Shown: positions 6,659 to 49,262 of the stretch, piece by piece | How the letters are laid out: every line of letters begins with the position of its first letter | Position numbering within the stretch: the stretch's first letter is position 1 | DNA from: an uncultured Thiotrichales bacterium | GTDB lineage: Bacteria > Pseudomonadota > Gammaproteobacteria > CAIRSR01 | Length of the DNA stretch: 58,528 bases | Direction of reading: 5' to 3' | NCBI GenBank assembly: GCA_903824965.1 | Contig: CAIJYR010000110.1 | Span: forward strand, 1-58,528 | Translations under genes and position numbers: made by a program | The notes under the pieces: model-generated | The model's input: the letters and a program-made list of their open reading frames with translations, nothing else | Told to the model about the DNA's origin: nothing | Databases searched by the model: none

Positions 6659-7354
6659 GTGAAACGTAAGATCGCTATCGTTGAAGACGAGCCGTCCATT
6701 CGGGAAAACTATGCCGATGTGCTGCGCCGTCAAGGGTATGAGGTGGCAACCTTCAGCGCCCGCACGGAAGCACTGGCCTCTTTTCGTGCGCGACTGCCCG
6801 ACCTTGCTATCCTAGACATTGGTCTCGAAAACGACGTGGAAGGCGGGTTCGAGTTGTGTCGGGAGTTGCGTGCCATGTCTGCAACCGTCCCCATCATCTT
6901 TCTGACCGCCCGCGACAGTGAGTTTGATACTATTTCAGGGTTACGCTTAGGGGCGGACGATTATCTTACCAAAGACATCAGCCTTCCCCACTTGGGGGCA
7001 CGCATTGCCGCGCTGTTCCGACGTATGGATGCCTTGCGTGCACCGCCCATCCGCGAAACCCTCCTGACCCGTGGAGCGTTGACACTCGACATGAACCGGA
7101 TGCAGGTGCGTTGGCGTGACCAGCCTGTGGATCTCACGCTGACCGAGTTCTGGCTAATCCACGCGATGGCCCGTTTTCCAGGACACGTTAAGAACCGCGA
7201 ACAACTGATGCACGAGGCCAACATTGTGGTGGATGACAGCACCATCACCAGCCACATCAAACGGGTGCGTCATAAATTTATCTTACTCGACAGCGATTTT
7301 TCTGCCATCGAGACGATTTACGGAATGGGGTATCGCTGGAAAACCGATGCCTAA
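6659..7354 (+). CDS. OmpR/PhoB-family response regulator (REC + winged-helix)
   Basis: GTG start preceded by GGGGAG. Receiver motifs are IAIVEDEP, DLAILDIGL (phospho-Asp) and PIIFLTARD. The C-terminal winged-helix reads LTLTEFWLIHAMARFPGHVKNREQLM...GMGYRW. Confidence 0.9.
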   Translation: MKRKIAIVEDEPSIRENYADVLRRQGYEVATFSARTEALASFRARLPDLAILDIGLENDVEGGFELCRELRAMSATVPIIFLTARDSEFDTISGLRLGADDYLTKDISLPHLGARIAALFRRMDALRAPPIRETLLTRGALTLDMNRMQVRWRDQPVDLTLTEFWLIHAMARFPGHVKNREQLMHEANIVVDDSTITSHIKRVRHKFILLDSDFSAIETIYGMGYRWKTDA

Positions 7355-7382
7355 CCCGATGCCTTCTCTGCGGACATAATCA

Positions 7383-9566
7383 GTGCGCAACCGAGCACAG
7401 AATCCCACCCTCATAGCTGGTCCGCGACGTCGGCCGTGGTTCAGTTTACGCGTCAAGGTCTTGTTCGTTTCCCTCGCGGTACTCACCATTCCGTGGACGG
7501 GATACGAGTATCTCCGGGAAATGGAGGTATTCCTCCAACACGGCCAAGAAAATGCGCTCCTGGCCACTGCACACGCGGTTGCTGCGGTACTGCATGATCG
7601 TCCTGAATTGTTTCAGCACCATGCAGACCTGTTGCGTTCTACACAATCAGAACGGGAGATGTTCATCCCTGCGCTTCGCAGCCCCATTGTACTCGATGGA
7701 CTTCTGGACGACTGGAATCCATATATCGCACAAGCCCACACCTATGCTGCCGACAATGTGCTGGAGAGTAAAGGCACATACGATCCAAAGTCTTTCTATT
7801 TTAAACAAATCATCGGAACCTACGAGCGTTATCTCTACACGGTCTTCCTGGTGCGTGATCTTAAAGTTCTCTATCGAGACCCTAACAGTTACCGATTGGA
7901 TCAATGTTCCCACTTGCAGATCGCCATCCAAGGGCCTGATGGGAAATTTTACCGCTACCGCCTGGCGACCCAAGCCCCGGGTTGGGTAAACGCTCACCTG
8001 ATGCCAGATAATCCCAACAACCCACTGCCGTTGCGTCCTGAAGTACGCATCAAAGGCGCTTGGCGCGAAACCTCCGATGGGTATGTGCTCGAACTGCGTA
8101 TTCCCATGTCGATGGTGGGTGCCCGCATTGCCTTTGCGGTTGCTGCGGTCGATCCCGCGACCCGTGAAATCCGAACGGTGATTGGCACCGCAGGTACACG
8201 GCGTGTAGAAGAATTGGGCGTCGTGATTGTTCCCTCGCCCGAGATCGAGACCATTCTGAAAGATCTGGAGCGAGGTACCACCGAACGGATGTGGGTGGTG
8301 GATCACAACAAGCGGGTACTGGCTTTGGCAGGTAGTCTGCAAGACGATATTTCCTCAGGCGAAGAACCGCGCAATCCGACCGCTGTACTGATGCATACTC
8401 TGTATCGGTTTATTCTTCCGCAACCGAGTGCGAGTGTGGATGATGATCTTTCGGGTGCTGCACGCCTAGAGGGTCAAGAGATCGAGGCGGCCCTGGCGGG
8501 TCATTCCCAGACCCGCTGGCGTCAACTCGGGGATCGGCACACTGCGATCCTTTCTGCGGCGCACCCTGTGCGTACTGGTAACGTCGTCAGCGGGGCCGTG
8601 GTGGTCGAGGAAACCAGCAATACCATTCTCAGTTTACAAAATCGGGTCATGGAAAACCTGTTCAATGTCACCTTGATTGTGTTTCTGACGGCAACCGTGA
8701 CCTTGCTCATTTTTGCCTCGCGTTTTTCGAGCCGTATTCGACGATTGCGCGATGAAGCGGAACGTGCCATTGGCCCGGATGGACGGGTGCGTGGTCGTAT
8801 CACGGGTTCTTTTGCGATGGACGAGGTGGGTGATCTTGCACGCAGTTTCTCCACCCTGTTGGATCGGATCAGCCAGTACACACGCTACCTCGAAGCCATG
8901 GCAGGTAGGCTCTCTCATGAGTTGCGTACCCCTTTGGCAGTGGTCAAGTCGTCGCTGGAAAACCTGGAGATGCAGCCTGTTTCCGACGAAGCGGCCATTT
9001 ATACCCGTCGTGCCCGAGAAGGCGTTGCGCGTTTGTCGTCTATTCTTTCTTCCATGAGTGAGGCATCCCGCCTAGAACAAATCCTGCAACGCGAAGAGGC
9101 CGAGGATTTTGGAATTGTCGAAGTCGTGACTGGTTGTGTAGAGGGATACCGCGTGATTTATCCCCAAAAGGCTTTTGCGTTAGAAGTACCCCAGGGATCT
9201 GTCTTGATCCGAGGGGTGCCCGAACTGGTTGCGCAAATGTTGGACAAACTCGTTTCCAATGCGGTCGATTTTAGTACGGGGGAGGATCCGATTGTTGTGC
9301 AACTCGACGTAACACGCACCAATGTACTCTTGTCTGTGACGAACCACGGCGCACATTTACCCGCCCAAATGGGGGAGCGGTTGTTTGAATCCATGGTTTC
9401 TATCCGATCACAGCGTGGCAATGAGCCACATTTGGGGATTGGTCTTTACATCGTCCGGTTGATTACTGAGTTCCATGGTGGCCTTGTGGAGGCGCATGAT
9501 CTGGAAGATCCGCCTGGTGCACAATTCACGGTTCACCTGCCGTTGCGCGTTGGGGCCACACCGTAA
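7383..9566 (+). CDS. sensor histidine kinase with large (about 380 aa) periplasmic domain
   Basis: TM1 is VKVLFVSLAVLTIPW and TM2 is LFNVTLIVFLTATVTLLIFASRF, followed by a HAMP-like segment. The H-box is RLSHELRTPLAVV. N, G1 and G2 boxes are KLVSNAVDF and GIGLYIV. It is translationally adjacent to the response regulator. Confidence 0.9.
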   Translation: MRNRAQNPTLIAGPRRRPWFSLRVKVLFVSLAVLTIPWTGYEYLREMEVFLQHGQENALLATAHAVAAVLHDRPELFQHHADLLRSTQSEREMFIPALRSPIVLDGLLDDWNPYIAQAHTYAADNVLESKGTYDPKSFYFKQIIGTYERYLYTVFLVRDLKVLYRDPNSYRLDQCSHLQIAIQGPDGKFYRYRLATQAPGWVNAHLMPDNPNNPLPLRPEVRIKGAWRETSDGYVLELRIPMSMVGARIAFAVAAVDPATREIRTVIGTAGTRRVEELGVVIVPSPEIETILKDLERGTTERMWVVDHNKRVLALAGSLQDDISSGEEPRNPTAVLMHTLYRFILPQPSASVDDDLSGAARLEGQEIEAALAGHSQTRWRQLGDRHTAILSAAHPVRTGNVVSGAVVVEETSNTILSLQNRVMENLFNVTLIVFLTATVTLLIFASRFSSRIRRLRDEAERAIGPDGRVRGRITGSFAMDEVGDLARSFSTLLDRISQYTRYLEAMAGRLSHELRTPLAVVKSSLENLEMQPVSDEAAIYTRRAREGVARLSSILSSMSEASRLEQILQREEAEDFGIVEVVTGCVEGYRVIYPQKAFALEVPQGSVLIRGVPELVAQMLDKLVSNAVDFSTGEDPIVVQLDVTRTNVLLSVTNHGAHLPAQMGERLFESMVSIRSQRGNEPHLGIGLYIVRLITEFHGGLVEAHDLEDPPGAQFTVHLPLRVGATP

Positions 9567-9774: not shown

Positions 9775-11985
9775 GTGGCCAAGCCGATCAAGATCAATAC
9801 TGCAAGGGAACTGGATGAACTGCTCGCACGCGCCAAAAGAGAGCGGTGGCAGAAACTGGGTCTTTTTGGGCCTGGAGCAGTCGAGTATCAGTTCGATCGA
9901 GTGGTGGGGGATGTCCCCCTTTACCAGCTTGGAGAGGTCATCAAAGACCTGCCCCAAAAGCTTGCGACCCTGACACATCTCACTGTACTTCATGTAACAG
10001 ATAACAAAATCGGCGAGGAAGGGGCGCGGGCGCTCGCCAATCTCTCCAACCTCACTTCGCTTAATCTTGATGGAAACAGCATAGGCTCTGAAGGGGCGCG
10101 GGCGCTCGCCAATCTCTCCAACCTCACTTCGCTTGATTTACAGTACAACCACATAGGCCCGGAAGGGGCGCGGGCACTGCTGAACGCTTGGTGCAAACGG
10201 TCGAATGCTGATCGTTTAGAAACACTTGATCTCCGCAACAATTCCATAGCAAAACTCCCCCTCCCTGCTGAAACCATTGCCTCCAAGGATGCACAAGCCA
10301 TTCTTGCGGCTTGGCGGACTGTCCTCGCTTCTGAGCAAAAGAGAAAACTGCGCCCCCTGAACGAAGCCAAATTGCTGGTGGTGGGTAGCGAGGCGGTGGG
10401 TAAAACCTCGCTCGTCCGGTATCTGAAGGATGGGAAGTCATGCAATCCGCAGGAAAAGAAAACGGAAGGTGCAGTGATTCATGAACGAATCGAGATCAAT
10501 GCCTGGTCGCACGATGCAAGTGGTATGAAGCTCAATATCTGGGATTTCGGAGGTCAGGAAATCATGCACGGAACGCACCGCTATTTTCTGACCCAGCGCA
10601 GTCTCTATTTGTTGGTTTTGGAAGATCGGCGGGAGGACAACTGCCCGATTCAAGATTGGCTGAACATCATTGCCAATCGTGCTGGTACTGCACCCGTCAT
10701 TGTGATCATCAATAAATCGGATAACGGAAAAGAGGCGCTCCTGCTGTCGCAGGATGCGATCAAACGTGACAATCCAAGCATTGTCGCGTTTCATCGAACC
10801 GCATGCAATGCGGATGAATGGTCAAAAAAGAGCATCGAAGCCTTGCGGGTACTGATTGCCAAGGCGCTTAAAGAACACCCATCGCTTGACGAGATTCGCA
10901 AGCCAGTTCCCGCAAGCTCGTTATGGGTAAAGAATGCGATTGCCAAGAAAGCCAGTGCACAGCAGGTTGTCTCCCTCCTTGATTTTGAATTGCTGTGCGA
11001 AAGAGTCCCCGATAGCGAACGGGCGGGCGATCAGGATCTAAGCACTCCCGACGAGCGGCGTGCCCTGCTGCGTTTGTTGCATGATCTTGGGGTGATCGTC
11101 GCCTATGGGTTCAAACCAGGCGATCGGGAAGTGAAGCGCAATACAGTCTTGCTCGATCCGAATTGGTTGACGGAAGCTATTTACACCATTTTGAACCACA
11201 AAGAATTGCGATTACAAAACGGCATTTTCCACAAGGATCAGCTCAATCAATGGTTAGATAAAACCAAATATCCCCTTGAACGCCACGAATTTATCTTGAC
11301 AATGATGCAAGAAGAGGATTTGGGTTTGTGCTTTCCGTTGTCTGGTACGTCTGATCAATTTCTCGTACCGGAGGGATTGCCCGTAGAGATCGAGGGTTTC
11401 CAGTATGACGCATTTTACCAAAAAGGTTGTTTGCGCTTTCGTTATCGCTACAACAAACTGCTACCAGTTGGGTTGATACCGCGTTTTATCGTGGAAGCAC
11501 ACAAAAAACTGACTCAAACGCGCATCTGTTGGCGAACGGGTGCTGTCTTTGAGACTGCACAGTGTCAAGTGCTGGTGAGCGCCGATCGTACTAAGCGCGT
11601 GGTGGAGATTGCTGTGAAGGGGCCGCCTACTCGTCAGCGGGACGCGCTGAACAGAATCCTGGATGATCTGGAGCAGGTTCATACCCTCAATGGCGATCTT
11701 GGCGTAGAGGCGCGTGTGCCCCTTTCGGAACAACCAGACGTTGATGCGAGGTACGATTATTTGCTGCTCTTAGAGGCCGAGGAGGGGCCTGACTGGATTC
11801 TTCGGCCTGAAGGTTCCGCTCGGAGATACACAGTGCAAGAATTACTCGAAGGCGTTCGTCGTGATACGAAGGGAGATCAGAGGAACAAACAGAATATAAA
11901 CTTTGGGAATGTCAAAGAAGTCACAATCATCCAGGTCGATGGAGACAATGCAAACGTGACAGGCAGGGATAAGAAAATCTCTTGA
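9775..11985 (+). CDS. ROCO-family protein: leucine-rich repeats + Roc (Ras-of-complex) GTPase + COR domain
   Basis: GTG start with AGGAGG 6 nt upstream. RNI-type 24-aa LRRs GxEGARALANLSNLTSLxLxxNxI lie at about 9950-10290. Roc motifs are the P-loop VVGSEAVGKTSL (10381-10416), WDFGGQE (about 10541-10560) and INKSD (about 10708-10722). The COR-like region at about 10900-11700 includes HDLGVIVAY, LLDPNWLTEAIYTIL and VPEGLP. Confidence 0.85.
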   Translation: MAKPIKINTARELDELLARAKRERWQKLGLFGPGAVEYQFDRVVGDVPLYQLGEVIKDLPQKLATLTHLTVLHVTDNKIGEEGARALANLSNLTSLNLDGNSIGSEGARALANLSNLTSLDLQYNHIGPEGARALLNAWCKRSNADRLETLDLRNNSIAKLPLPAETIASKDAQAILAAWRTVLASEQKRKLRPLNEAKLLVVGSEAVGKTSLVRYLKDGKSCNPQEKKTEGAVIHERIEINAWSHDASGMKLNIWDFGGQEIMHGTHRYFLTQRSLYLLVLEDRREDNCPIQDWLNIIANRAGTAPVIVIINKSDNGKEALLLSQDAIKRDNPSIVAFHRTACNADEWSKKSIEALRVLIAKALKEHPSLDEIRKPVPASSLWVKNAIAKKASAQQVVSLLDFELLCERVPDSERAGDQDLSTPDERRALLRLLHDLGVIVAYGFKPGDREVKRNTVLLDPNWLTEAIYTILNHKELRLQNGIFHKDQLNQWLDKTKYPLERHEFILTMMQEEDLGLCFPLSGTSDQFLVPEGLPVEIEGFQYDAFYQKGCLRFRYRYNKLLPVGLIPRFIVEAHKKLTQTRICWRTGAVFETAQCQVLVSADRTKRVVEIAVKGPPTRQRDALNRILDDLEQVHTLNGDLGVEARVPLSEQPDVDARYDYLLLLEAEEGPDWILRPEGSARRYTVQELLEGVRRDTKGDQRNKQNINFGNVKEVTIIQVDGDNANVTGRDKKIS
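10018..10178 (+). repeat. 72-bp in-frame tandem repeat (LRR units) inside the ROCO gene
   Basis: The 45-nt string GAAGGGGCGCGGGCGCTCGCCAATCTCTCCAACCTCACTTCGCTT is identical at 10018-10062 and 10090-10134. A third diverged unit starts at 10162. Confidence 0.9.
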
Positions 11986-12048
11986 TTTTCAGATTGCCCC
12001 TCTCCTGAAAGGAGAGGGGTTGGGGTGAGGTAATCTTCTGGGTTTGAC
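11984..12048 (+). repeat. REP/MITE-like element R2 (subfamily GCCCCTCTCC)
   Basis: GATTTTCAGATTGCCCCTCTCCTGAAAGGAGAGGGGTTGGGGTGAGGTAATCTTCTGGGTTTGAC. It starts on the ROCO stop codon. Confidence 0.85.
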
Positions 12049-12097
12049 ATTCCTTTTACTTTTTTCTTTGCGTCTCTTTTTTTTAATTCAAAAGAAA

Positions 12098-12192
12098 CAA
12101 AAAATCAACATCAAGAGATCAACCCCTCCCTCAACCCCTGCCCCAACCCCTCCCCGAATCATCGGGAAGGGGTTTAATACTACAGTCAAAAG
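12098..12192 (-). repeat. REP/MITE-like element R3 (inverted orientation; head-to-head partner of R2)
   Basis: ...CAACCCCTCCCTCAACCCCTGCCCCAACCCCTCCCCGAATCATCGGGAAGGGGTTTAATACTACAGTCAAAAG. It is the reverse complement of the family consensus. Confidence 0.75.
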
Positions 12193-12329
12193 AAAGCATA
12201 TTGTGATGCTGGGTGTTTCACGAACGGCACCCGTTTGTTATACTATGTGCTCTCACAAAAAACCAGCGCATCAAGTGGCACTTCGCCTGCCATCGCTAAG
12301 ATCAAACCATTACAGTAGGCCACACATTG

Positions 12330-15300
12330 ATGAGTCAACAGAAAGACAGTACACGGTATCAGGCCATTCTGTCCCGCCTACAGGCACTCATGGCAGAAGC
12401 GATGCCAGCGCAAAACTCCGGCGAGATGAACCTGGATGTCCCGTTCCTGGAGATGGGTGCCAATTCTTTGATCTTGATGGATGTGCAACGCACGGTAGAG
12501 AGTGAATATGGAATCACCATTACTATCGCCCAGTTCTTTGAGGAACTGACAACGATCGGTGCACTCGTTACCTACATCGACGAACAACAAGCACTGAAAA
12601 ACCCCGAAATGGTTGCCACTGCGGCTGCTTCGGTTGATCCGGTTGCACCTCCTCCGGTGATCACCACGCCAACGCTGGGCGAACCCGTCCACGCCGCATC
12701 GACCTATACGCCGATGACCGGGTTGCCGAGCCTGGGTGCGTTGGCCCCTGCAACCTTGCCAGTTGCAAGCGGTGCACTGGAGGCTATCTTCGCAAGCCAG
12801 ATCCGCACCACCGCACAAGCCATGAATGAGTTGGTCGCACGACAGTTGCAATTCTTGGCGCAGTCCGGTGTGTTGCCGACTTCGCCCCCTGTCACGGCCC
12901 TCCAAAAAGAATCCGCACCGATAGCCGTACAAGCACCACAGCCTCGTCCCAAAGAGCACACGCAACCAAGCGCACCCACCACCACCGACACCGTATCTCC
13001 TACCCCAAAAAAGGCCAAAGGCGCGTTGCAGCCGCAAAAGATGCTGTCCGCGCTCGAAATCCGCGCCCGTGGCCTCACCCCCACCCAACAGCAGCACCTA
13101 GAAGCACTGATCCGAGACTACAACGCTCGCACCCCAAAATCCAAAGCACACGCCGATCGCTATCGGACCGTCCTCGCAGACAGTCGCGCCGCCGTTGGTT
13201 TTCGTTTTACCACGAAAGAAATGCTGTATCTGCTGGTGGCCGGACGCTCACGCGGAAGCCGCGTTTGGGACATCGATGGCAATGAGTACATCGACATCAC
13301 GATGGGGCAGGGGGTGACACTCTTCGGACATCATCCCGAATGTGTCGAAAGCGCCTTTCAAGCCATGGGGTCGGACGGTGTCGGGTTGGGGCCGCGTCCC
13401 GAAAGCGTCGGCGAGGTCTCGGAACTGTTCTGCGAAATGACAGGCTTCGACCGAGTGACCTTCACAAACAGCGGCACCGAAGCCGTCATGGCCGCCCTAC
13501 GGTTGGCACGTGCCGCTACAGGTCGCTATAAAATCGTCATGTTCGAGGGCGCTTACCACGGCCACGCCGACAGCGTAATGGGCATGTCGGTTACTCGCGA
13601 TGGTGAAACGATTACACAGCCCGTCTCGCCAGGAACCCCGCCAGGGGCCGTAGCCGATCTGCTGGTCTTACCCTACGATGATCCTCAGACCCTAGAAGTG
13701 ATCAAAAAACACGGGGACACCATCGCAGCGGTCATCGTAGAGCCTGTCCAAAGCCGCAATCCACGGGTTCAGCCCCGCGAATTTTTGCACGCACTACGTC
13801 AACTGACCACCGACATCGGCGCATTGTTGATCTTCGACGAAATGATCACGGGTTTCCGTGCCCATTTGGGCGGCGCACAGGCTTGGTTTGGGGTACGCGC
13901 TGACATGGCCACCTACGGAAAAGTCATTGCAGGCGGAATGCCCATCGGGGTCGTTGCAGGAAAGGCAAGCCTCATGGATCCCATCGATGGCGGGCCTTGG
14001 CGCTACGGGGATGGTTCCTATCCGCAGGTCAATCGGGTGGTGTTCGGGGGTACGTTCTGTCAACACCCCCTGACCATGGCCGCGATGCTCGCAACCCTGC
14101 GATACCTCAAAGAACATTCGCCCACACTCCAAAACGATCTAAACCGCCGTACCGAAACCCTCGCCACCACCTTAAACCGCTGGTTTGCCGAAGAACAGGT
14201 ACCCATCGAGATCGTCTGGTTCGGATCTTTGTTTCGTTTTGAGTTTACTTCTAATCTGGAATTGTTGTTCTACCATATGAACTTGCGCGGCATTTTCGTA
14301 TGGGAATGGCGCAATTGTTTCTTGTCCACCGCCCACACAGATGCCGATGTCGCTGCCATCATTGCCGCTGTCAAAGACAGCGTGTTGGCCATGCGCTCCG
14401 GTGGGTTCATCCCCCCCAAAGCAGAACGCTCCGACCGCTATCCGCTCAATGCCGCACAACAGCAGTTGGCCGCGCTTGCACACATTACCCCAGAAGGCTC
14501 CAAAGCCTATCATCTGAACACGATGCTTGCGTTTCAGGGCAAAGTCGATGAGCGACGGCTCTCACAAGCGGTCGATCAGGTGGTCGCACGGCATGAAGCC
14601 CTGCACTCCGTGATCAGTGGCGATCAACAGTGCGTGTGTGCGCCCACAGGCGGACTGCTACAGTGTATCGACCTGCGCGGTGCCGCTGATGTCGAGGCCG
14701 CTTGTCGTGGTTGGTTGGCCGCCCATACCCAACAACCGTTCGATTTGACACAAGGGCCGCTCTTTGTCGCGCACCTCTTGCGCCTTGCTGATCAAGAGTA
14801 TCGATTTGTCCTGAAGGCCCATCATATTGTCATCGATGGCCTCTCGATGAACCTGATGATCCAAGAGATGGCCAATGTTTATGGCGCACTGTGTGCCGAT
14901 AAAACGCCAGCGTTGCCCGAACCGTTCCAATACCGCGATTATCTACAGTGGCAATCAGAAAACGCCTTTGCCGAATCAGAACGCTATTGGTTACAGCACC
15001 TTGGGGGCGAATTGCCGCGCCTAGAACTGCCAACGGATCGCCCACCGCCCGCCCTCAAGAGCTACCAGGGGGGACGGATTATGCGTCCGATCGATCGAAC
15101 CCTGTTTGCTGGCATACGCAAGTTGAGCAGTACGAATGGCGTGACGCCCTTCATGACCCTTTTGTCACTCTATGGATTGTGGCTGCACCGCCTTACGGGT
15201 CAGGACGACCTTATCATTGGGATGCCCGTTGCGGGACGTTCCCTCCATGGTGGGGATCGCTTGGTCGGGTATTGCACCCATTTGCTGCCGATTCGTTCTC

Positions 15301-17657
15301 GGCTTTTGTGGGATGAGCCCTTCGTTGCCTATCTGAAGCGGATGCGTGGGGTGCTTCTACAGGGGTACCAGCACCAGGATTACCCCTTTGCACGTCTCAT
15401 GGAAAAACTCGTCCTGCCCCGTGATGGTCGTCAGGCACCGCTTGTGTCGGTGATTTTTAACCTGGATCGGCCTGGGGCTGCGCCTGCGTTTGGGGATCTC
15501 GCGGTGCGTTGGTTGTCGCTCCCGATTCAGCATACCGCTTTCGATCTCGTGATGAACCTGACCGAACTCGGGGACGATCTTGCCCTAGAGTGTGACTACA
15601 ACGGTGATCGGTTCGATCTCGCCACCATCGAGCGTCTGATCGACCACTTCCAGACGATGATGGTGGGCGTCGTTGCAGACCCAAAACGTCCCTGCGCCCA
15701 ACAGCCTCTCTTGGACGAAGCGACTTGGCGGCGTTGGTTGATCGACTGGAACCAATCCGACCATCCCTACCAACCCGATCAGGGGGTTGCCGAGCGTTTT
15801 GCCACACAGGTCGAGGCAACGCCAGAAGCCATTGCGGTGCGCTGGTTTGAAGGTCGGTTGACGTACCATGCCCTGAACCGTGCGGCGAATCACCTCGCCC
15901 ATGCGCTACGGGCACAGGGGGTATCCAAGAACCGCATCGTTGCCATTGGTTTGCAGCGTTCTCCCTCGCTCATCGTGGCTATCCTTGCCACCTTGAAGGC
16001 AGGGGGTGCCTATTTGCCCCTTGATCCAGACTATCCACCGGCGCGGATCGCATTCATGCTGGAAGATGCAAAACCCTCCGTGCTGTTGACGGAAACCGCG
16101 ATCGCCGAACACCTGCCGATCATTCCGGGAACCGTGCGCTGGTTGCTGGATGCCGAGGGAGTACCACGAGATTTTCCGACGACCAATCCAGAGATCCAAA
16201 GCAACGCCGACGATCTCGCGTACGTCCTCTATACGTCTGGTTCCACCGGACAACCCAAGGGAACGATGATCACCCAGCGCGGCATGATCAATTATCTTAA
16301 CTGGGCCATAGAGTACTACCGGACGCGGGAAGGGGCCGGATCACCGCTGCATTCTTCGATTGGATTTGATGCCACGATCACGAGTCTTTTCACGCCGCTC
16401 TTGTCGGGGCGTACCCTGCACTTGTTGCCGCACACTGGCGAAGAGATCGAAAACATCCGCATTGCCCTCCAAGGCACCGATGGCAAAGGCCAAGACTGGT
16501 CTTTGGTGAAGCTCACGCCCGCCCATCTCGATCTCATGAACGTGATGATTCCAGGGCCGGAGCTTGCGGGTCTCACGCGCTATTTGGTGCTGGGTGGGGA
16601 TGCCATGTTGGGGCGCACGGTTGCACCGTGGCGTGCGTCGGCACCCGACACCCACATCATCAATGAATATGGCCCCACCGAGACCGTGGTGGGGTGTGCG
16701 ATTTACGATGATCGGCGGGTTGCGCCGTCCGAAGAAGCGGTGCCCATCGGTCGGCCCATCTGGAACACCCGCCTGTATGTGCTGGATGCACGGCGTCAGC
16801 CGGTGCCCATGGGCGTCCCTGGAGAGCTGTACATTGGGGGGGATGGCGTTGCGATTGGTTATCTGAACCGCCCTGAATTGACCGCAGAGCGATTTATTGA
16901 CGTTCACACGACGGGCCTCATGGAAGGGCCGTCTCCCGTTCCTCTCGGGAGACTCTACCGCACGGGCGATCGGGTGCGCCTACAGCCGGATGGCGAACTT
17001 GTGTACCTTGGTCGCTATGACAACCAGATTAAATTACGCGGATATCGTATCGAACTCGATGAGATTCAGGCGGCCTTGATCGCGCTCCCTGACATCCGCG
17101 AGGCCGTGGTGGTTGTGATCGGCAGCACTGACCACGATCGACGACTCGGTGCCTATCTAGTGTTGAACGAGGGCGTAGCGCCGCAGGTCAGTGCGTGGCG
17201 TGCTACACTGAGCGAACGCTTGCCGGATCACATGATCCCTTCTCATTTCGTCGTGCTTGAACAACTGCCCCTAACCGCCAATGGCAAGGTGGATCGTAAG
17301 GCGCTGCCTTCTTTGGCGAGTGTGGGTCAGGGGGTATCACCGCTGCAATCCCCCCGCAACGACACAGAACGGCGGATCGCTGCCATTTGGTGCGAATTGT
17401 TGCAACGTTCTGCGGTGGGGGTTGATGACAATTTCTTTGAGATTGGTGGACACTCGTTGATGGTGCTGCCTCTCAGAGAACGGTTGCTGTCTGAGTTTTC
17501 GCGTCCTTTGTCGCCGGTGGATCTGTTTCGCTATCCGACGGTTGCGAGCCTTGCGCAGTTCCTGTCGGCATCGAGCGATGTGCAGAATAACAGCGCGGTC
17601 GCGAGTGGCCGTAAGCGACGCGACAGTGCTGCACGACGCCAGGCGTTGGGCTTTTGA
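12330..17657 (+). CDS. hybrid NRPS: carrier - class III (GSA-type) aminotransferase - condensation - adenylation - PCP
   Basis: 1775 aa from ATG 12330 (TTG 12327 in the track). Motifs are the carrier [34 protein letters not shown] and [12 protein letters not shown] (PLP Lys), and C-domain [9 protein letters not shown]. A-domain cores are [37 protein letters not shown], YRTGD and [10 protein letters not shown]. The PCP motif is [11 protein letters not shown]. Confidence 0.95.
   Translation: [1775 protein letters not shown]
12348..12581 (+). other. N-terminal carrier (ACP/PCP) domain of the NRPS (approximate)
   Basis: The [13 protein letters not shown] motif has its phosphopantetheine Ser codon at 12465-12467. 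A Pro/Ala/Thr-rich linker of about 160 aa follows (about 12590-13060). Confidence 0.8.
13070..14410 (+). other. in-line PLP-dependent aminotransferase (AMT) domain (approximate)
   Basis: Class III aminotransferase signatures: [21 protein letters not shown], [26 protein letters not shown] and [12 protein letters not shown] (Lys codon about 13919-13921). Confidence 0.85.
14430..15720 (+). other. condensation (C) domain (approximate)
   Basis: HHxxxDG is present as HHIVIDG at 14820-14840, flanked by C1-like [10 protein letters not shown] and downstream C-domain cores. Confidence 0.85.
15790..17310 (+). other. adenylation (A) domain (approximate)
   Basis: A3 [11 protein letters not shown] lies at about 16230-16262, with A4 FDATITS, A5 NEYGPTE, A7 YRTGD, A8 [16 protein letters not shown] and A10 NGKVDRKAL (17281-17310). 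Substrate code not determined. Confidence 0.9.
17355..17570 (+). other. PCP domain (approximate)
   Basis: [13 protein letters not shown], with the Ser codon at about 17453-17455. Confidence 0.85.
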
Positions 17658-17705
17658 TTGTAGGGTTAAAGCCCTTCCATTGGGTTTTTATTGGGCTTTT
17701 ATTGG

Positions 17706-17782
17706 GATTCTGACTTTAGGAGTAAACCCCTTCCCCTCCAGGGGGAAGGAGCTGGGGGAGGCAGGGTGATTTGGTCTTGATC
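17706..17782 (+). repeat. REP/MITE-like element R4 (subfamily CCCCTTCCCC)
   Basis: GATTCTGACTTTAGGAGTAAACCCCTTCCCCTCCAGGGGGAAGGAGCTGGGGGAGGCAGGGTGATTTGGTCTTGATC. It lies in the NRPS-PKS intergenic region. Confidence 0.85.
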
Positions 17783-17854
17783 TTTAAGAATTTTGATCTT
17801 TAAAGAGTCTTGGAGCTTGGTAATGTCTAAGATAAAAGATGTTATCAAGCCATC

Positions 17855-17933
17855 CAAGACAAATCAGAACAAGCCCCCACCCATCCCCAACCCCTCCACG
17901 GAGGGGCTATGCCTAGAGTCAAAAACTCAAATC
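17855..17933 (-). repeat. REP/MITE-like element R5 (inverted; head-to-head partner of R4)
   Basis: CAAGACAAATCAGAACAAGCCCCCACCCATCCCCAACCCCTCCACGGAGGGGCTATGCCTAGAGTCAAAAACTCAAATC. Confidence 0.75.
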
Positions 17934-17982
17934 TTTTTGACTAGCACAGGAAACGCAACATGTTGTACACAATGGTGTAAAA

Positions 17983-20900
17983 ATGCCTACAACGAACGAT
18001 GACTGCGCTGCAACGGCTGGAATTGCCATTGTTGGTATGCATGTACGAGTTCCTGGTGCTACGAGTCTTGCACAATTCTGGTCGAATCTGCGCGACGGGG
18101 TCGAATCGATTACCTTTTTTAGCGATGAAGAATTGCGTACTGCCGGAGTCGATGAAGCTACCCTGGCCAATCCCGATTACGTCAAGGCTCTCGGTCGCTT
18201 GACGGGCATTGACCTGTTCGATGCTGCGTTTTTCAACCTAACACCCCGCGAAGCAGAGATCCTCGATCCACAACACCGTCTGTTGTTAGAAGGCGTTTGG
18301 CGTGCATTGGAACACGCTGCCATTGATCCAGAGCGTTATCCAGGACGGATCGGCTTGTTCGGTGGTGTCGGTCTGAACGGGTATTTGTTGCACAATCTCA
18401 TAAGCCACCCCGAATTGCTCGAAAGCGTCGGTGGCTGGCACTTGACCCTCAGCAACGACAAAGATTTTGCGACCACCCGCGTTGCCTACAAGCTCAACCT
18501 GCAAGGCCCAGCGATCACGATGAACACGGCGTGCTCGACGTCGCTCGTCGCAACCGTGATGGCGGCCCAAAGTCTGCTGAGCCACCAGTGTGATGTCGTA
18601 GTCGCTGGAGGTTGTTCCCTTCATTTGCCCCAAGATCAAGGCTATTTTTATACCCAAGGTGGAACACTGTCACCAGATGGTCATTGTCGCCCCTTCGACA
18701 GCCACGCCGCAGGAACCATCGATGGCAACGGCTGTGCCTTGGTGGTACTGAAGCGTTTGCAGGACGCCATCGAAGAAGGCGATACCATCCATGGTGTGAT
18801 TCGCGGTTTCGCCATCAACAACGATGGGTCGTTGAAGGTCGGATACAGTGCGCCAAGCGTTGCGGGACAAGCTGAGGTCATTCTGGAGGCGATGGAGATC
18901 GCGGGCATCACCGCCGACGCCATCGACTACGTAGAGACCCACGGTACCGCAACCGATCTCGGCGATTCCGTGGAGATCGCAGCCCTGACCGAAGCCTTTC
19001 GCACGAGCAGCCAGCGTGTGGGCCACTGTGCCATCGGGTCTCTCAAGAGCAACGTCGGACACCTCGACACGGCCGCCGGTGTTGCAAGCCTCATCAAGAC
19101 CGTCTTGGCGATGAACGCAGGAGAAATTCCGCCGACGTGTCATTTTCAGGCACCCAATCCAAAACTCGGACTTCCAGAAAGTCCCTTTTTCGTCAACGCG
19201 ACACGGATCCCCTGGCCGAAGCGTACCGGATCACTGCGTCGTGCGGGGGTCAGTTCGTTTGGCATCGGTGGCACCAATGCCCACGTCATTGTCGAAGAAG
19301 CCCCCCCTGCGAAAGCGTCTCGCATGGGGCGGCCGTGGGTGTTGCTGCCTCTGGCGGCCAAAACCCGAGAAGCCTTGGCACAGATGGGCACCGAACTCGC
19401 CGATCACCTCGATGCCCACCCTGCACAATCGCTTACCGACATTGCCCACACACTACAAGTGGGTCGACGTCATTTTCCGTGGCGGCGAATCCTGGTGGTG
19501 GCCGCCGATGATCACGCAAGTGCGAGTGCACAGCTTCGCGATCGGGATGTGGGTGTGCAGGGACAGACACCGACAGGCAGCGTTGCCCCGATTTTCTTGT
19601 TGCCAGGCCAAGATGCCCACTGCGCTAACATGGCGCTTGCACTCTACCGCGATGAGCCGCGCTTCCGCGCCACCCTAGAAGAGTGCCAAGCATGGTTATC
19701 GACCCATCATGGGATCGATCTGCGATCGCTTTTGTATGCCGAGTCGCCAAGCCACCTATCGGGCTTGGATCCCCTGCCGTTGTACGTCGTGAATGTTGCG
19801 CTTGCACAGCTTTGGTTGTCTTGGGGGGTGGTGCCACGCGCATTGGTCGGGTATAGCCTGGGCGAGTATGTTGCAGCAACCTTGGCAGGTGTCGTGACGT
19901 TGCACGAGGGTCTTGCGATCGCGGTTGCGGCCCGCCAGTTATTACAAACGCTCAAACCAGGACGCATGATCGCAGTGTGGTGCTCAGCCTCTGAATTGCA
20001 ACCACGCCTCCCCCCAAATACTTACCTAGCCATGGTGATCGGCCCTCAGCAGGTGGTTGCCGCCGGCACCGAAGAGGCGATCGCAACCCTGATCGAACAA
20101 CTCAAAGCGGTCGCACTACAGTGGCAACCTGTACCGTTGACGTTACCGTTCCACACGCCGCTGATGGAACCGTTTTTGGCACCGTTTGCCAAAGTGTTGC
20201 GTGAAATCCGTTTTCAGGAACCCAAGATTCCCTACCTTTGTTCCGTGACGGGCCACTGGATCACAGCGTCAGAAGCGACGGATCCAAGCCATTACCTGCG
20301 ATTGGCCACCACCACGGTACGCTTGGATCGCATGTTGGAGCGCCTGTTTGCGGATCTCGGTGCCGCCAACGATGGGGTATTGTTGGAGGTCGGACCGAGT
20401 CAGGTGTTGACCGCGCTGGTCTCGCGGCATCCGCAACGTCCTGCTGATTTGGCGGTGTTCTCTTCGCTGCCTGATCCACGCCATGCGGTGGTGGGGGGCG
20501 ATCAGGCGCACCTGTTGGGTACTGCAGGGCGTTTGTGGATTGCTGGGGTTGCCTTAGATTGGTCGGCGCTTGCGGATTCAGAGCGTTGTGTCGCGATCCC
20601 AGGGCACCCTCTGACGCCACAACGCTTCTGGATCGATCCCGTGCCTGTGCGTGTTGCCGACACCGAGGAAGTCTCAGACACCGCACCCGTACACAAAGAA
20701 CCAGACATCGGGCGTTGGTTTTATGTGCCTGGCTTTCGACGATTGCCACCCGCACGGGCGGTTCTGACCCCAGGCAGCCGTTGGTTGATCATTTATGATG
20801 CTGCAGGGTTGGCGAAGCGTTTGACCGTGGCTCTCCAAGCCGCGAATACAGAGGTGGTAGCGGTCTTTCCTTCCACAGGGCCACTGCAGGGATCGATGGC

Positions 20901-22524
20901 AGCGGGGTATTGCCTAGATTGTGCCGATCCAAACGCTGTACAGGCACTCTTCACGGCCCTTGGGGACTGGCGGCCCCAGCAGATCGTTCATCTTGCGCTT
21001 TACCAATCCACTCTATTCCCAGGCTCTCCAGGCACTCCAGGCGCTCTCGCGTTTGATGCCATGGTGGCGTTGGCATCTGCCATGGGTAAACACTATTTTA
21101 GTGATGAAATAACGCTGACCCTGGTGGCCGATCGACTGTGCGCGGTCGATAGCGCAAACACGCCCGATGCGGCCAAGGCAACCGCCCTTGGGCCTCTACG
21201 GGTGATGGCGCAAGAATACCCGAACCTTGCAACGCGGATGATTGACCTCGATGGCGCACCCCGTCTCTCTGTGCTGGTTGCAGAACTCGCGGAAGAGGCT
21301 GCACCGCGCACGGTGGCCTTGCGAGGCACCATCCGCTTGCGTGAATCGTTTGAACCGTCCCCCCTGCCAGTGGTGAGCGGGATTCCGGCGCGGTTGCGTC
21401 AGGACGGCGTTTATCTGATCACGGGGGGATTGGGCAACATTGGCCTTGCGTTGGCGCACTACTTCGCCAAGACGCTTGCGGCCAAACTGGTGTTGGTGTC
21501 GCGTACCCCCCTGCCAGCGCGATCGACCTGGTTGGAGCATCTGGCCAATCCCACGACCCCTCTGCGTTTGTCTAATCAGTTGCGCCGCTTGTTGTCCATC
21601 GAGGCGGCGGGTGGTGAGTTGCTGATCTGCAGCGCAGATGTTGCGGAAGAATCTGCGATGGGTGGCGTGTTGGTGGAGGCTGAGCAACGGTTTGGCACCT
21701 TGCATGGGGTGATCCATGCTGCGGGATTGGTGGGCGAGGATTCGTTTGTGACCCTGGGCGATGCGTGCAACGAAGTGGGTCTATTGGCCAATCGGCGGCA
21801 ATTTCCATCCAAAGTCAATGGTATTGAAGTGTTGGCCTCCCTTCTTGCGGGGCGTGCGTTTGATTTTTGTTTGGTGTGTTCGTCGCTTTCGCCGATGCTC
21901 GGAGGACTTGGTTTCGCGGCATATGCGGCCACGAACCTCTACGTGGATGCGCGTATCGAACAACTCAATCTTGCGCAGCCAGGACAGTGGCTTGCGGTCA
22001 ACTGGGAAGGGTGGATGTTTGAAGCACCCGATCAACCTCCGGATCAACCCAAGGGTATGGCGAGTGCGCTGGAGCTTGGGATGACCGCCACCGAGGGTTG
22101 CGAGGCATTCGCTCGTTTGATGGAATGGCCTTCGTTGGAACGGATCATCCTTTCAAGCGGGGATTTGCAGAGGCGTCTTGCGCAATGGGTGGAGCGCAAA
22201 CCCAAAACAACGTCCACCAAGAGCGGTCATGCACGCTCAGAACTGCTCGGCGAGTGTGTCGCCCCCCGCAACGCCACAGAACGCGAGCTTACAACCCTCT
22301 GGGAGCAACTCCTTGGGATTGATGGCATTGGTGTAGAGGATAGTTTTTTTGAACTAGGGGGCAATTCACTGCTCTTAACGCAATTGGTGGCCATGATGCG
22401 CAGAACGTTCCGCGTCGAGTTGGCGCTGGGTGCGTTGTTTGGACAACCGACGGTAGCCGCCATTGCCGCTTTGATTGATCGGGCGACCAATGGGGAGGAA
22501 GAGCGAGACGAGGGGTTTTTGTAA
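17983..22524 (+). CDS. type I polyketide synthase module: KS - AT - (structural/psi-KR region) - KR - carrier
   Basis: 1513 aa. KS motifs are MNTACSTSLVA, VETHGTATDLGD and NVGHLDTAAG. AT motifs are LLPGQDAHCANM, VGYSLGEYVAA and LPFHTPLM. KR motifs are the Rossmann stretch GVYLITGGLGNIGLALA and ...AAYAATNLYVDA. The carrier motif is FFELGGNSLLLTQL. No DH (HxxxGxxxxP), ER or TE was recognised. Confidence 0.95.
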   Translation: MPTTNDDCAATAGIAIVGMHVRVPGATSLAQFWSNLRDGVESITFFSDEELRTAGVDEATLANPDYVKALGRLTGIDLFDAAFFNLTPREAEILDPQHRLLLEGVWRALEHAAIDPERYPGRIGLFGGVGLNGYLLHNLISHPELLESVGGWHLTLSNDKDFATTRVAYKLNLQGPAITMNTACSTSLVATVMAAQSLLSHQCDVVVAGGCSLHLPQDQGYFYTQGGTLSPDGHCRPFDSHAAGTIDGNGCALVVLKRLQDAIEEGDTIHGVIRGFAINNDGSLKVGYSAPSVAGQAEVILEAMEIAGITADAIDYVETHGTATDLGDSVEIAALTEAFRTSSQRVGHCAIGSLKSNVGHLDTAAGVASLIKTVLAMNAGEIPPTCHFQAPNPKLGLPESPFFVNATRIPWPKRTGSLRRAGVSSFGIGGTNAHVIVEEAPPAKASRMGRPWVLLPLAAKTREALAQMGTELADHLDAHPAQSLTDIAHTLQVGRRHFPWRRILVVAADDHASASAQLRDRDVGVQGQTPTGSVAPIFLLPGQDAHCANMALALYRDEPRFRATLEECQAWLSTHHGIDLRSLLYAESPSHLSGLDPLPLYVVNVALAQLWLSWGVVPRALVGYSLGEYVAATLAGVVTLHEGLAIAVAARQLLQTLKPGRMIAVWCSASELQPRLPPNTYLAMVIGPQQVVAAGTEEAIATLIEQLKAVALQWQPVPLTLPFHTPLMEPFLAPFAKVLREIRFQEPKIPYLCSVTGHWITASEATDPSHYLRLATTTVRLDRMLERLFADLGAANDGVLLEVGPSQVLTALVSRHPQRPADLAVFSSLPDPRHAVVGGDQAHLLGTAGRLWIAGVALDWSALADSERCVAIPGHPLTPQRFWIDPVPVRVADTEEVSDTAPVHKEPDIGRWFYVPGFRRLPPARAVLTPGSRWLIIYDAAGLAKRLTVALQAANTEVVAVFPSTGPLQGSMAAGYCLDCADPNAVQALFTALGDWRPQQIVHLALYQSTLFPGSPGTPGALAFDAMVALASAMGKHYFSDEITLTLVADRLCAVDSANTPDAAKATALGPLRVMAQEYPNLATRMIDLDGAPRLSVLVAELAEEAAPRTVALRGTIRLRESFEPSPLPVVSGIPARLRQDGVYLITGGLGNIGLALAHYFAKTLAAKLVLVSRTPLPARSTWLEHLANPTTPLRLSNQLRRLLSIEAAGGELLICSADVAEESAMGGVLVEAEQRFGTLHGVIHAAGLVGEDSFVTLGDACNEVGLLANRRQFPSKVNGIEVLASLLAGRAFDFCLVCSSLSPMLGGLGFAAYAATNLYVDARIEQLNLAQPGQWLAVNWEGWMFEAPDQPPDQPKGMASALELGMTATEGCEAFARLMEWPSLERIILSSGDLQRRLAQWVERKPKTTSTKSGHARSELLGECVAPRNATERELTTLWEQLLGIDGIGVEDSFFELGGNSLLLTQLVAMMRRTFRVELALGALFGQPTVAAIAALIDRATNGEEERDEGFL
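18020..19300 (+). other. ketosynthase domain (approximate)
   Basis: The active-site Cys is in TACSTS (about 18531-18533). His residues lie in HGTAT (about 18939-18953) and NVGH (about 19050). The domain ends at GGTNAHVIVEEAP. Confidence 0.9.
19585..20520 (+). other. acyltransferase domain with non-canonical motifs (approximate)
   Basis: The active-site pentapeptide is GYSLG (19849-19863, Ser 19855-19857) instead of GHSxG. GQDAH replaces GQGSQ. LPFH occupies the HAFH/YASH specificity position. Confidence 0.8.
21400..21990 (+). other. ketoreductase domain (approximate)
   Basis: The NADPH-binding motif is TGGLGNIG. A catalytic-region Tyr lies in AAYAATNLY (about 21920-21945). Confidence 0.8.
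22255..22470 (+). other. C-terminal carrier domain, PCP-like sequence (approximate)
   Basis: EDSFFELGGNSLLLTQLV, with the Ser codon at about 22365-22367. The protein ends 18 aa after the domain, so no release domain is present. Confidence 0.85.
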
Positions 22525-22686
22525 TCTATTATTCACACGCTTGCTGTACGTTATACCAGTCGTGTTTTGTGTGATTGTGGACATGGACAAACGGGACTGC
22601 TTTGTTGTATTCTGTCTAATGTATTTGTGTGATCACAGCCTGGTGTTCGTTGCGTGTACTACTACAGTTTTATAGGGGTATGAAGA

Positions 22687-23208
22687 ATGACTGAAGTTCA
22701 AAACCAAGATTCAAAGCGCCAAGAAGCCGATACCATTGTTCGCAACTATGCGATTGGTTCGATGGTTCCTAGCCTGTTGCCCGTGCCCATGCTGGATCTG
22801 GCCGTGGTGACCGGAGTTCAGTTGAAAATGCTGCACAGCCTGACCCAGATCTACGGAGTTCCTTTCAAAAAGGATCTGGCCCGTTCTGCGATGGCATCGC
22901 TCTTGGGCGGTACGGTGGCGTTGTCTTTGGCTCGTGTGACCTCTAGTGCCATCAAGGCGGTGCCGGTCGTTGGTTCGCTGATCGGTGCCTTCAGTATGCC
23001 TGTGGTCAACGGTGCGTCTACCTATGCCATTGGTAAAGTATTTGAACAGCATTTTGAGACGGGTGGCACGCTTCTGACTTTTGATCCAGTTCAGATGCGC
23101 GAGTATTTCAAGCAGCAGTTTGAAGAAGGCAAGAAGATTGTCTCGGCTGCGCAGGAAGCAAGTAAGGCGCCTGCTGCTGAACCCGCGAAAGCCGCCGTCA
23201 AGATGTAA
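22687..23208 (+). CDS. DUF697 (YcjF-like) domain membrane-associated protein
   Basis: ADTIVRNYAIGSMVPSLLPVPMLDLAVVTGVQLKMLHSLTQIYGVPF...AVPVVGSLIGAFSMPVVNGASTYAIGKVFEQHF matches the DUF697 pattern. The C-terminal tail is charged and Ala-rich. Confidence 0.65.
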   Translation: MTEVQNQDSKRQEADTIVRNYAIGSMVPSLLPVPMLDLAVVTGVQLKMLHSLTQIYGVPFKKDLARSAMASLLGGTVALSLARVTSSAIKAVPVVGSLIGAFSMPVVNGASTYAIGKVFEQHFETGGTLLTFDPVQMREYFKQQFEEGKKIVSAAQEASKAPAAEPAKAAVKM

Positions 23209-23230
23209 TATTGTTAGGCGATTGTTCGAC

Positions 23231-23278
23231 AGGGCCTTCCCAATAGGGGAAGACCCTGTACGGGTCGTTATTTTTGCT
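23231..23278 (+). terminator. possible rho-independent terminator
   Basis: An imperfect hairpin GGGCCTTCCC-AATA-GGGGAAGACCC is followed within about 15 nt by TTATTTTTG. Confidence 0.4.
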
Positions 23279-23309
23279 TTGAATCATCGCCTGTTGCAAC
23301 AATAATCGC

Positions 23310-24983: not shown

Positions 24984-25015
24984 CGCTGCCTTTTGCACTG
25001 TGATCTAAAAACGCC

Positions 25016-25720: not shown

Positions 25721-25736
25721 TTGGACACAATCTTTC

Positions 25737-25804
25737 GACTTTTAGTGCGCCCCTCTCCTGAAAGGAGAAGGGTTGGGGAGAGGTAGGGTGCTGGTTTTGA
25801 TTTG
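25737..25804 (+). repeat. REP/MITE-like element R6 (subfamily GCCCCTCTCC)
   Basis: GACTTTTAGTGCGCCCCTCTCCTGAAAGGAGAAGGGTTGGGGAGAGGTAGGGTGCTGGTTTTGATTTG. Confidence 0.85.
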
Positions 25805-25830
25805 TTTTTAGATCAAGATTCTTGAAGATA

Positions 25831-25910
25831 TCAAAACCAAGATCAAACCACCCTGTCTCCCCCAGCCCATTCCCCCCAGAGGGGAAGGGGCTTAATCCTA
25901 AAGTCAAAAG
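25831..25910 (-). repeat. REP/MITE-like element R7 (inverted; subfamily CCCCTTCCCC; partner of R6)
   Basis: TCAAAACCAAGATCAAACCACCCTGTCTCCCCCAGCCCATTCCCCCCAGAGGGGAAGGGGCTTAATCCTAAAGTCAAAAG. Its reverse complement is highly similar to R4. Confidence 0.85.
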
Positions 25911-25956
25911 TGTTTTTATTTCTGCTACATCTTATTCTCCGGCAACAGGAGTTGTG

Positions 25957-26814: not shown

Positions 26815-26825
26815 ACGAGTGCACA

Positions 26826-27059: not shown

Positions 27060-27064
27060 AAGTA

Positions 27065-49245: not shown

Positions 49246-49262
49246 CTTTTTCTTGGCCCAGT

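Follow-up and report, generated by a model that had tools for sequence, protein, structure and literature searches.

The stretch of DNA analysed here, called the window below, is 58,528 nucleotides long and comes from an uncultured Thiotrichales bacterium (genome G000, contig C110). It encodes a nonribosomal peptide synthetase (NRPS), P0001, whose polypeptide begins with a carrier domain and an aminotransferase (AMT) domain. The window is a proteobacterial chromosome segment in which the gene cluster is flanked by the genes of RodZ, IspG, HisS, Obg, YhdP and FlgA, and the biosynthetic genes form a co-directional block at 12327-29313. Judging from the comparisons described below, the N-terminal carrier is most probably the acceptor acyl carrier protein (ACP) of a split type I polyketide synthase (PKS) module, the catalytic half of which, P0243, would be supplied in trans from another contig of the same genome. 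P0001 and its domains, including the condensation (C), adenylation (A) and peptidyl carrier protein (PCP) domains, are as follows:

12327-17657, forward strand: NRPS P0001, ACP-linker-AMT-C-A(Asn)-PCP, 1776 amino acids (aa); 100% identical to a database entry of 1775 aa
12348-12581, forward strand: N-terminal ACP with the motif PFLEMGANSL, 40% identical to the ACP of MicA, a KS-AT-ACP-AMT protein (KS, ketosynthase; AT, acyltransferase)
12588-13061, forward strand: ACP-AMT linker of 158 aa (residues 88-245)
13062-14417, forward strand: AMT domain of the MycA type, matched to solved structures
14433-15722, forward strand: condensation domain, apparently of elongation type, with HHIVIDG (Pfam and solved-structure matches)
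15798-17288, forward strand: adenylation domain (Pfam), predicted Asn code DATKVGEVGK, read from the sequence
17373-17564, forward strand: PCP (Pfam)

The start codon of P0001 is either TTG at 12327 (1776 aa) or ATG at 12330 (1775 aa). Pfam recognises two PP-binding stretches and Aminotran_3 (PF00202, residues 301-658, E 8.7e-56), together with Condensation (703-1132), AMP-binding (1158-1513, with its C-terminal part at 1579-1654) and PP-binding at 1683-1746. The phosphopantetheine-bearing residue of the first carrier is Ser47 (codon TCT, 12465-12467), and the Schiff-base lysine that holds pyridoxal phosphate (PLP) in the AMT domain is K532 (codon 13920-13922), found in ATYGKVIAGG and invariant in 13 aligned sequences. 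Pro, Ala and Thr make up 43% of residues 88-245, as compared to 24% of the entire protein, and the linker contains a conserved helix (approximately 12768-12869, residues 148-181), in which Q158, Q173, L174 and L177 are invariant across the family and also in MicA. An earlier, sequence-only reading of this DNA had described the protein accurately in these respects, i.e., as an N-terminal carrier, a low-complexity linker of about 160 residues and an AMT domain, with neither A nor KS domain upstream in the window. It had also called for classification of the C domain: the closest solved structures are of elongation type (Txo1/Txo2 at 215-218 bits, TycC at 194 bits), a rough placement, with much lower scores for starter C domains of the lipo-initiation kind (CDA-C1 at 67 bits, SrfA at 81-83 bits). 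The specificity code of the A domain, DATK[VI]GEVGK, is conserved in all orthologues of P0001 and in the Jahnella NRPS discussed below, where it reads DATKIGEVGK; this code has been assigned to Asn (PMC3547906 Table 2), and the A domain is predicted to be specific for Asn. A 610-bit match to LgrA in PDB, seemingly in favour of Gly, was rejected as a guide to specificity: the score adds up two separate A-domain matches of about 305 bits and is uninformative on the substrate.

The AMT domain is a class-III (fold type I) PLP aminotransferase, and it is closer to the characterised AMT domains than to glutamate-1-semialdehyde aminomutases (GSAM/HemL type) or other transaminases: residues 250-697 match the solved AMT of MycA (PDB structures 6KFM, 6KFR and 6KFU) with 507 bits (E 4.9e-151), versus 212 bits for the best GSAM/HemL-type structure. 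The ACP lies directly upstream of it, separated by the long helix-bearing linker, and C-A-PCP follows downstream. The first 700 residues of P0001 are 45-50% identical, over 97-100% of their length, to proteins with the order KS-AT-ACP-AMT-(Ox)-C-A-PCP (MicA, NpnB and Burkholderia hybrids). In the alignment of 13 sequences, the carrier motif is invariant within the family and reads PFLEIGADSI in MicA, and the linker has a conserved segment, LEIRARGLTxxQQxHLExLI, ahead of the AMT domain. Of 239 stored homologues, 99 begin with ACP-AMT. From the gap in PDB scores and this census of domain positions, the unit is assigned to the family of in-line AMT modules typified by MycA, ItuA, MicA and the microsclerodermin synthetase, and it most resembles the microsclerodermin protein with the order ACP-AMT-(Ox)-C-A(Asn)-PCP, which is followed by a PKS. 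The long Pro/Ala/Thr-rich linker is the standard ACP-AMT junction rather than a peculiarity of P0001, because MicA and the Jahnella NRPS share the same layout.

All these modules need a ketosynthase that acts on the ACP, and there is none in the same polypeptide. Within the window, no KS, A or AT domain is encoded upstream of P0001; its neighbours on that side are a response regulator, a histidine kinase and an LRR-Roc-COR protein, within 12 kb of unrelated genes. We scanned one genome per species for the ACP-linker-AMT tridomain, and tabulated the neighbours at 83 loci. In almost every locus that has upstream DNA, a KS(-AT) directly precedes the ACP, in most cases fused to it and in about 16 as a separate open reading frame (ORF) that stops just before the ACP. 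The loci without an adjacent KS are the window itself, Ectothiorhodospiraceae BW-2, one Scytonema (L109) and one Streptomyces (L104). In Delftia sp. PS-11, Thalassomonas actiniarum, a metagenome-assembled genome (MAG) of Sulfuricellaceae and a deltaproteobacterial MAG, the gene order is KS-AT0-AT, 3HCDH-ACP-ACAD-FkbH, a Kelch-like gene, ACP-AMT-C-A-PCP and KS-AT-KR-ACP (KR, ketoreductase). The first of these proteins, 1364-1390 aa long in the closest relatives, carries KS and AT but lacks an ACP, and its gene lies immediately next to that of the ACP in one Thiotrichaceae MAG (L047) and one Desulfobacterales MAG (L049).

An orthologue of this ACP-less protein is encoded in the genome of the Thiotrichales bacterium, on a contig other than the window:

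Contig C52, 20909-25081 (L031:6910-11082), reverse strand: P0243, KS-AT0-AT, 1390 aa

P0243 is 45% identical to the Thalassomonas protein over its full length. Its KS is intact, with the Cys-His-His triad, and is followed by AT0, a truncated AT remnant that lacks the active-site Ser (GVAGGRSAA), and then by the usual post-AT linker. The C-terminal part consists of a Pro/Ala/Thr linker and a complete ZmaA-like AT (GYSIGE). A helix in the P0243 linker, LAQLMEQQLRLVAEAIG..QQLAVLQ, resembles the helix in the ACP-AMT linker of P0001; the two could form a docking or dimerisation element between the partners.

The rest of the assembly line is recovered in the same way. Delftia PS-11 has six contiguous, colinear megasynthase genes, FAAL-ACP-KS-AT-DH-KR-ACP, KS-AT-DH-KR-ACP, KS-AT-DH-cMT-KR-ACP, KS-AT0-AT, ACP-AMT-C-A-PCP and KS-AT-KR-ACP (FAAL, fatty acyl-AMP ligase; DH, dehydratase; cMT, C-methyltransferase), and each of their products is the reciprocal best match of one protein of the Thiotrichales genome, at 44-52% identity over the full length. 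The orthologues are found on four contigs, namely C199 (the FAAL-PKS), C126 (KS-AT-DH-KR-ACP), C52 (KS-AT-DH-cMT-KR-ACP and P0243) and C110, the window. Contig C52, where the PKS genes are flanked by an AsmA gene and by polyamine genes, also encodes a Kelch-like beta-propeller protein with internal repeats (C52:35477-36823; L032:1478-2824, forward strand). Its orthologue (45% identity, E 5e-124) in the clusters of Delftia and Thalassomonas is encoded after FkbH and before the NRPS, and the protein is a predicted conserved member of the pathway.

The scattering of these genes is not an assembly artefact, because unrelated genes flank the loci and because the genes are dispersed also in the complete chromosome of Ectothiorhodospiraceae BW-2 (G001). 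There they occupy five loci, at 1.505 Mb (KS-AT0-AT), 2.29 Mb (the NRPS and a PKS), 2.98 Mb (two PKS genes), 3.70 Mb (FkbH) and 3.76 Mb (the FAAL-PKS), a pattern of dispersal different from that in the window's genome. Among the 31 relatives examined, the NRPS is present in four (G000, G004, G006 and G007) and KS-AT0-AT in three of these (G000, G004 and G007), always on another contig than the NRPS; no full NRPS or full KS-AT0-AT was found in the other 27. The family as a whole occurs in Delftia, Thalassomonas, Ectothiorhodospiraceae, Sulfuricellaceae, Thiotrichaceae and Magnetococcales. Our literature search (Thalassomonas actiniarum polyketide; hydroxymalonyl with AMT domain; FkbH with 3-amino-2-hydroxy) retrieved no characterised product for the family.

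The remaining genes of the block in the window are:

17983-22524, forward strand: PKS P0002, KS-AT-KR-ACP, which would act after the Asn module
22687-23208, forward strand: DUF697 protein
23310-24983, forward strand: ABC exporter with fused TMD and NBD
25016-25720, forward strand: free-standing thioesterase (PF00975)
25957-26814, forward strand: 3-hydroxyacyl-CoA-dehydrogenase-like protein (3HCDH; FkbK/ZmaG-like), 67-72% identical to in-cluster orthologues
26811-27059, forward strand: free-standing ACP of the cassette (FkbJ/ZmaD-like)
27065-28270, forward strand: acyl-CoA-dehydrogenase-like protein (ACAD; FkbI/ZmaE-like)
28282-29313, forward strand: FkbH (TIGR01686, 278 bits against a cut-off of 146.65)

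The reading frame of the 3HCDH-like gene is open from 25822; its orthologues are 284 aa long, and the real start is probably near 25957. Likewise, the FkbH frame is open from 28096, with homology beginning at 28282, which is probably close to the real start. The last four genes have the composition of a canonical hydroxymalonyl-ACP cassette (ZmaN/D/G/E, or FkbH/J/K/I without FkbG): an FkbH-family phosphatase/glyceryl transferase, a dedicated ACP, and the 3HCDH-like and ACAD-like enzymes, the same four genes being found in Delftia, Thalassomonas and loci L044 and L046. FkbH is free-standing and is provided with its own ACP, unlike the FkbH-primed starter modules that load glyceryl or lactyl units. 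No O-methyltransferase is encoded among the cluster genes at 12327-29313, although the remaining genome was not screened for a homologue of FkbG, and the only methyltransferase domain in the pathway is the C-methyltransferase of the PKS on C52. The most likely role of the cassette is to form hydroxymalonyl on the dedicated ACP, an extender unit for use by one or both ATs with a GYSxGE motif, those of P0243 (GYSIGE) and P0002 (GYSLGE).

Both of these ATs have as their best match the AT of ZmaA (PDB: 4QBU), with 220 bits for P0243 and 147 bits for P0002, and both have GYSxGE rather than GHSxGE. The GYSxGE motif sets the ACP-dependent ZmaA-AT and ZmaF apart from CoA-dependent ATs (PMC4207774 Table 2). 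The ATs of the three upstream PKS proteins have GHSVGE with HAFH or HPFH. At the RxR/MxM carrier-recognition site, P0002 has the uncharged QWQ and P0243 has PCR; at the YASH site, they have LPFH and HAFH, respectively, and ZmaA and ZmaF have GAAH and GPFH. The AT of P0243 keeps the carboxylate-binding Arg, has replaced a decayed AT, and adjoins the cassette in colinear clusters. If it uses hydroxymalonyl-ACP, the product of the AMT domain would be a 3-amino-2-hydroxyacyl unit, that is, a substituted isoserine, formed via KS condensation. The 3-amino-2-hydroxy unit proposed by the sequence-only reading may survive in this form, although not by the C3 glyceryl route imagined there. The AT of P0002 resembles ZmaF (GYSLG/GPFH); it and its orthologues keep GYSLGE or GSSLGE, together with LPFH or YAFH. 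This AT may belong to an unusual ACP-dependent kind, or be inactive.

Taken together, these comparisons suggest the following sequence of events. The chain would be built by the three upstream PKS proteins, FAAL-ACP-KS-AT-DH-KR-ACP on C199, KS-AT-DH-KR-ACP on C126 and KS-AT-DH-cMT-KR-ACP on C52. The AT of P0243 would load a malonyl-type unit on Ser47 of P0001, and P0243 would condense the chain with it to give beta-ketoacyl-S-ACP, in which the in-line AMT would turn the beta-keto group into a beta-amino group. C-A(Asn)-PCP would then couple the beta-aminoacyl chain to asparagine, and the KS-AT-KR-ACP of P0002 would add one C2 unit and reduce it, with the FkbH/3HCDH/ACP/ACAD cassette supplying hydroxymalonyl-ACP to one or both GYSxGE ATs. 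Since P0002 ends in its ACP at 22524 and has neither an in-line thioesterase (TE) nor a reductase, release would have to use the free-standing thioesterase or cyclisation. In Thalassomonas, the line goes on into more NRPS modules, including a sulfotransferase domain. The product expected from this line is a methyl-branched and unsaturated beta-amino acid with a long chain, perhaps also 2-hydroxylated, which N-acylates Asn and is followed by a (di)hydroxy C2 unit. The scheme has no need for non-colinear use of P0002, as all contiguous versions of the line are colinear.

Several observations weigh against the pairing of P0243 with P0001 and against parts of this scheme. The trans pairing of the P0243 KS with the P0001 ACP is one that we infer from domain identities, orthology, synteny and co-occurrence, and neither protein has a recognisable docking domain. 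The genome is a 265-contig assembly, in which the distances between the four loci cannot be read, although their flanks show that the loci are not adjacent. One relative, G006 (90% complete, 410 contigs), has the NRPS, and KS-AT0-AT was not found in it with this query. The Scytonema and Streptomyces loci carry an N-terminal ACP-AMT without an adjacent co-directional KS. As to the extender, the assignment is ambiguous: the AT of P0243 has the malonyl-type HAFH, and the AT of P0002 (19591-20550) lacks the canonical carboxylate-binding Arg, as do all its orthologues (AVAARQ, AMAGSA, AISCAE, AVDGAA and AVSGAK at this site in P0002 and in the orthologues of L028, L029, L030 and L046).

A broader reading joins these elements: a module split across distant loci, in which an ACP-less KS-AT0-AT protein, its original AT lost and a ZmaA-like one gained on a flexible linker, acts in trans and uses hydroxymalonyl-ACP, giving 2-hydroxy-3-amino acids without a monooxygenase, all within a six-protein line that is functional although its genes are spread over four or five loci in Gammaproteobacteria of the sulfur-oxidiser type. 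We put this forward tentatively and consider it less likely than not.

Repeated elements and neighbouring genes add some context to the locus. REP-like, G+C-rich palindromic elements occur in nine copies at 9574-40268 of the window, among them copies in the intergenic gaps of the cluster (11984-12192, 17706-17933 and 25737-25910), and one lies directly past the stop codon of the FAAL-PKS gene (C199:11916). They were considered as markers of the break-points of the biosynthetic gene cluster and rejected as not specific, given that they are found genome-wide, at about 130 sites on 71 contigs. The LRR-Roc-COR protein (a ROCO-type GTPase) is encoded at 9775-11985 on the forward strand, directly 5' of the NRPS gene, and the response regulator and histidine kinase pair at 6659-9566, ahead of it. 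Two large ORFs at 42461-48670 and 49101-53264, examined as possible missing modules, are a TPR protein and YhdP.

It is very unlikely that, after the break-up of the cluster, the ACP-AMT didomain or the entire line became a non-functional remnant in this organism. Genes spread over at least four contigs and interspersed with REP-like elements, and the lack of an in-line release domain, would be compatible with decay; however, each of the six megasynthase ORFs is intact over its full length, and the catalytic residues are present (Ser47, K532, HHxxxDG and the Cys-His-His of the KS). Moreover, the scattered but intact arrangement persists within the same genus and family at 74-82% identity, and also in the complete BW-2 genome, which indicates purifying selection.

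Highly improbable, too, is the route that the sequence-only reading had put forward, in which FkbH loads a glyceryl unit on the NRPS carrier, the 3HCDH-like enzyme oxidises it to 2-hydroxy-3-oxopropionyl, and the AMT domain converts this to isoseryl-S-carrier, a C3 starter for the C domain. Within the window it has some appeal: no KS, A or AT precedes the carrier, the cassette lies in the same operon-like block, and FkbH with the first dehydrogenase would give such an aldehyde, as they do in FkbH/ZmaN pathways, where it is an intermediate toward hydroxymalonyl-ACP. Yet the dedicated ACP of the cassette is conserved in every orthologous cluster, and the P0001 carrier is orthologous to ACPs of PKS modules that stand behind a KS, in nearly all loci, and has only a local match of 44 residues, at 34% identity, to the cassette ACP. 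The ACP-less KS-AT0-AT co-occurs with the NRPS, and in L047 and L049 it adjoins the NRPS with no cassette between them; in BW-2, FkbH is about 1.4 Mb away from the NRPS. The AMT domain is closely homologous to the beta-ketoacyl-ACP transaminase of MycA, and, finally, the glyceryl route would leave three upstream PKS proteins and KS-AT0-AT without an acceptor. FkbH had been taken for the only enzyme in the locus that could load a carrier without an A or AT domain; the same genome encodes on another contig a separate candidate, P0243, and such an enzyme outside the locus is among the findings that the sequence-only reading had itself listed as counting against its model. The ACP and AMT of P0001 are then best seen as the back half of a PKS module of the iturin/microsclerodermin type, with the KS and AT front half encoded elsewhere in the genome, and FkbH is very probably not the enzyme that loads the carrier.

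Scarcely credible is a non-colinear use of the downstream P0002, the sole KS in the window and to that extent a candidate for the KS that iturin-like logic needs, with its beta-keto thioester handed over to the N-terminal carrier or transaminated there: P0002 includes an ACP and a KR that looks intact, and has no need of a foreign carrier, it follows the NRPS in every colinear relative, ACP-less KS-AT0-AT would be orphaned, and the chain would have to move from ACP to ACP without a KS, for which we know of no mechanism. What stands of the iturin-like alternative in the earlier reading is, in principle, the transamination of a beta-keto thioester; its KS would be that of the trans-encoded KS-AT0-AT and not that of P0002, and the order in Delftia is strictly colinear.

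If the split-module reading is correct, the family, which is widespread and uncharacterised, offers a natural case of a PKS module with its KS-AT and ACP halves in trans across loci, and of carrier recognition without docking domains. It would also be a case of natural AT replacement, with a vestigial AT and a ZmaA-like AT side by side and next to an AMT domain, and possibly a way of making 3-amino-2-hydroxy acids, the pharmacophore of the protease inhibitors bestatin and microginin, that does without a monooxygenase. More generally, reading a megasynthase from its locus only can mislead, when the loading chemistry that seems to be lacking has its genes at another locus. The contiguous cluster of Delftia PS-11 is a practical entry to product discovery.

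Comparison with known systems helps to separate the ordinary features of this line from the unusual ones. MycA and ItuA, of mycosubtilin and iturin biosynthesis in Bacillus, likewise have an ACP, an in-line class-III aminotransferase and C-A-PCP, and a FAAL-initiated lipid chain that is beta-aminated; the first amino acid of MycA and ItuA is Asn, the same as predicted here. MycA, however, combines FAAL-ACP-KS-ACP-AMT-C-A-PCP in one polypeptide, served by a trans AT, whereas in the Thiotrichales line FAAL, the three full PKS modules and KS-AT0-AT are separate proteins encoded at separate loci, and the KS and ACP of the aminated module are on different polypeptides.

The NRPS of Jahnella sp. MSr9139 (V5UWX5) and the PKS that follows it are presumably MscF and MscG of microsclerodermin biosynthesis. 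This NRPS shares with P0001 the ACP-linker-AMT start and C-A(Asn)-PCP, with 48% identity in ACP-AMT and 39% in C-A-PCP. The microsclerodermin pathway reportedly uses hydroxymalonate extenders and places Asn after the beta-aminated polyketide, followed by PKS extension (PMC6163206). Unlike P0001, the Jahnella protein has a further domain between AMT and C, a monooxygenase of about 400 aa. The msc genes form one contiguous cluster, and there the line is prolonged by a hexapeptide part that has an in-line TE.

KS-AT-ACP-AMT modules of the MicA (microginin, Planktothrix), NpnB (nostophycin) and puwainaphycin type, which make beta-amino (2-hydroxy) fatty acids, have the same ACP, helix-bearing linker of about 150 aa and AMT, with 47-48% identity to residues 1-700 of P0001; their KS-AT, however, is fused in cis. 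The 2-hydroxyl of microginin-type products is attributed to a luciferase-like monooxygenase domain, which P0001 lacks, the FkbH cassette and ZmaA-like ATs being found instead. Zwittermicin biosynthesis has the same four-gene cassette (ZmaN/D/G/E) without an O-methyltransferase, the ZmaA-AT that both candidate ATs match best and whose GYSxGE motif they share, and a KS-AT-KR-ACP of the same content as P0002 downstream of an amino-acid module. It differs in its aminomalonyl branch, which is missing here, and in the motifs GAAH (ZmaA) and GPFH (ZmaF) in place of HAFH and LPFH; also, one of the ATs stands here behind a vestigial AT on an ACP-less protein. The unusual parts of the line are therefore the trans-split module, the AT replacement and the dispersal of the genes; the domain arrangement itself is ordinary.

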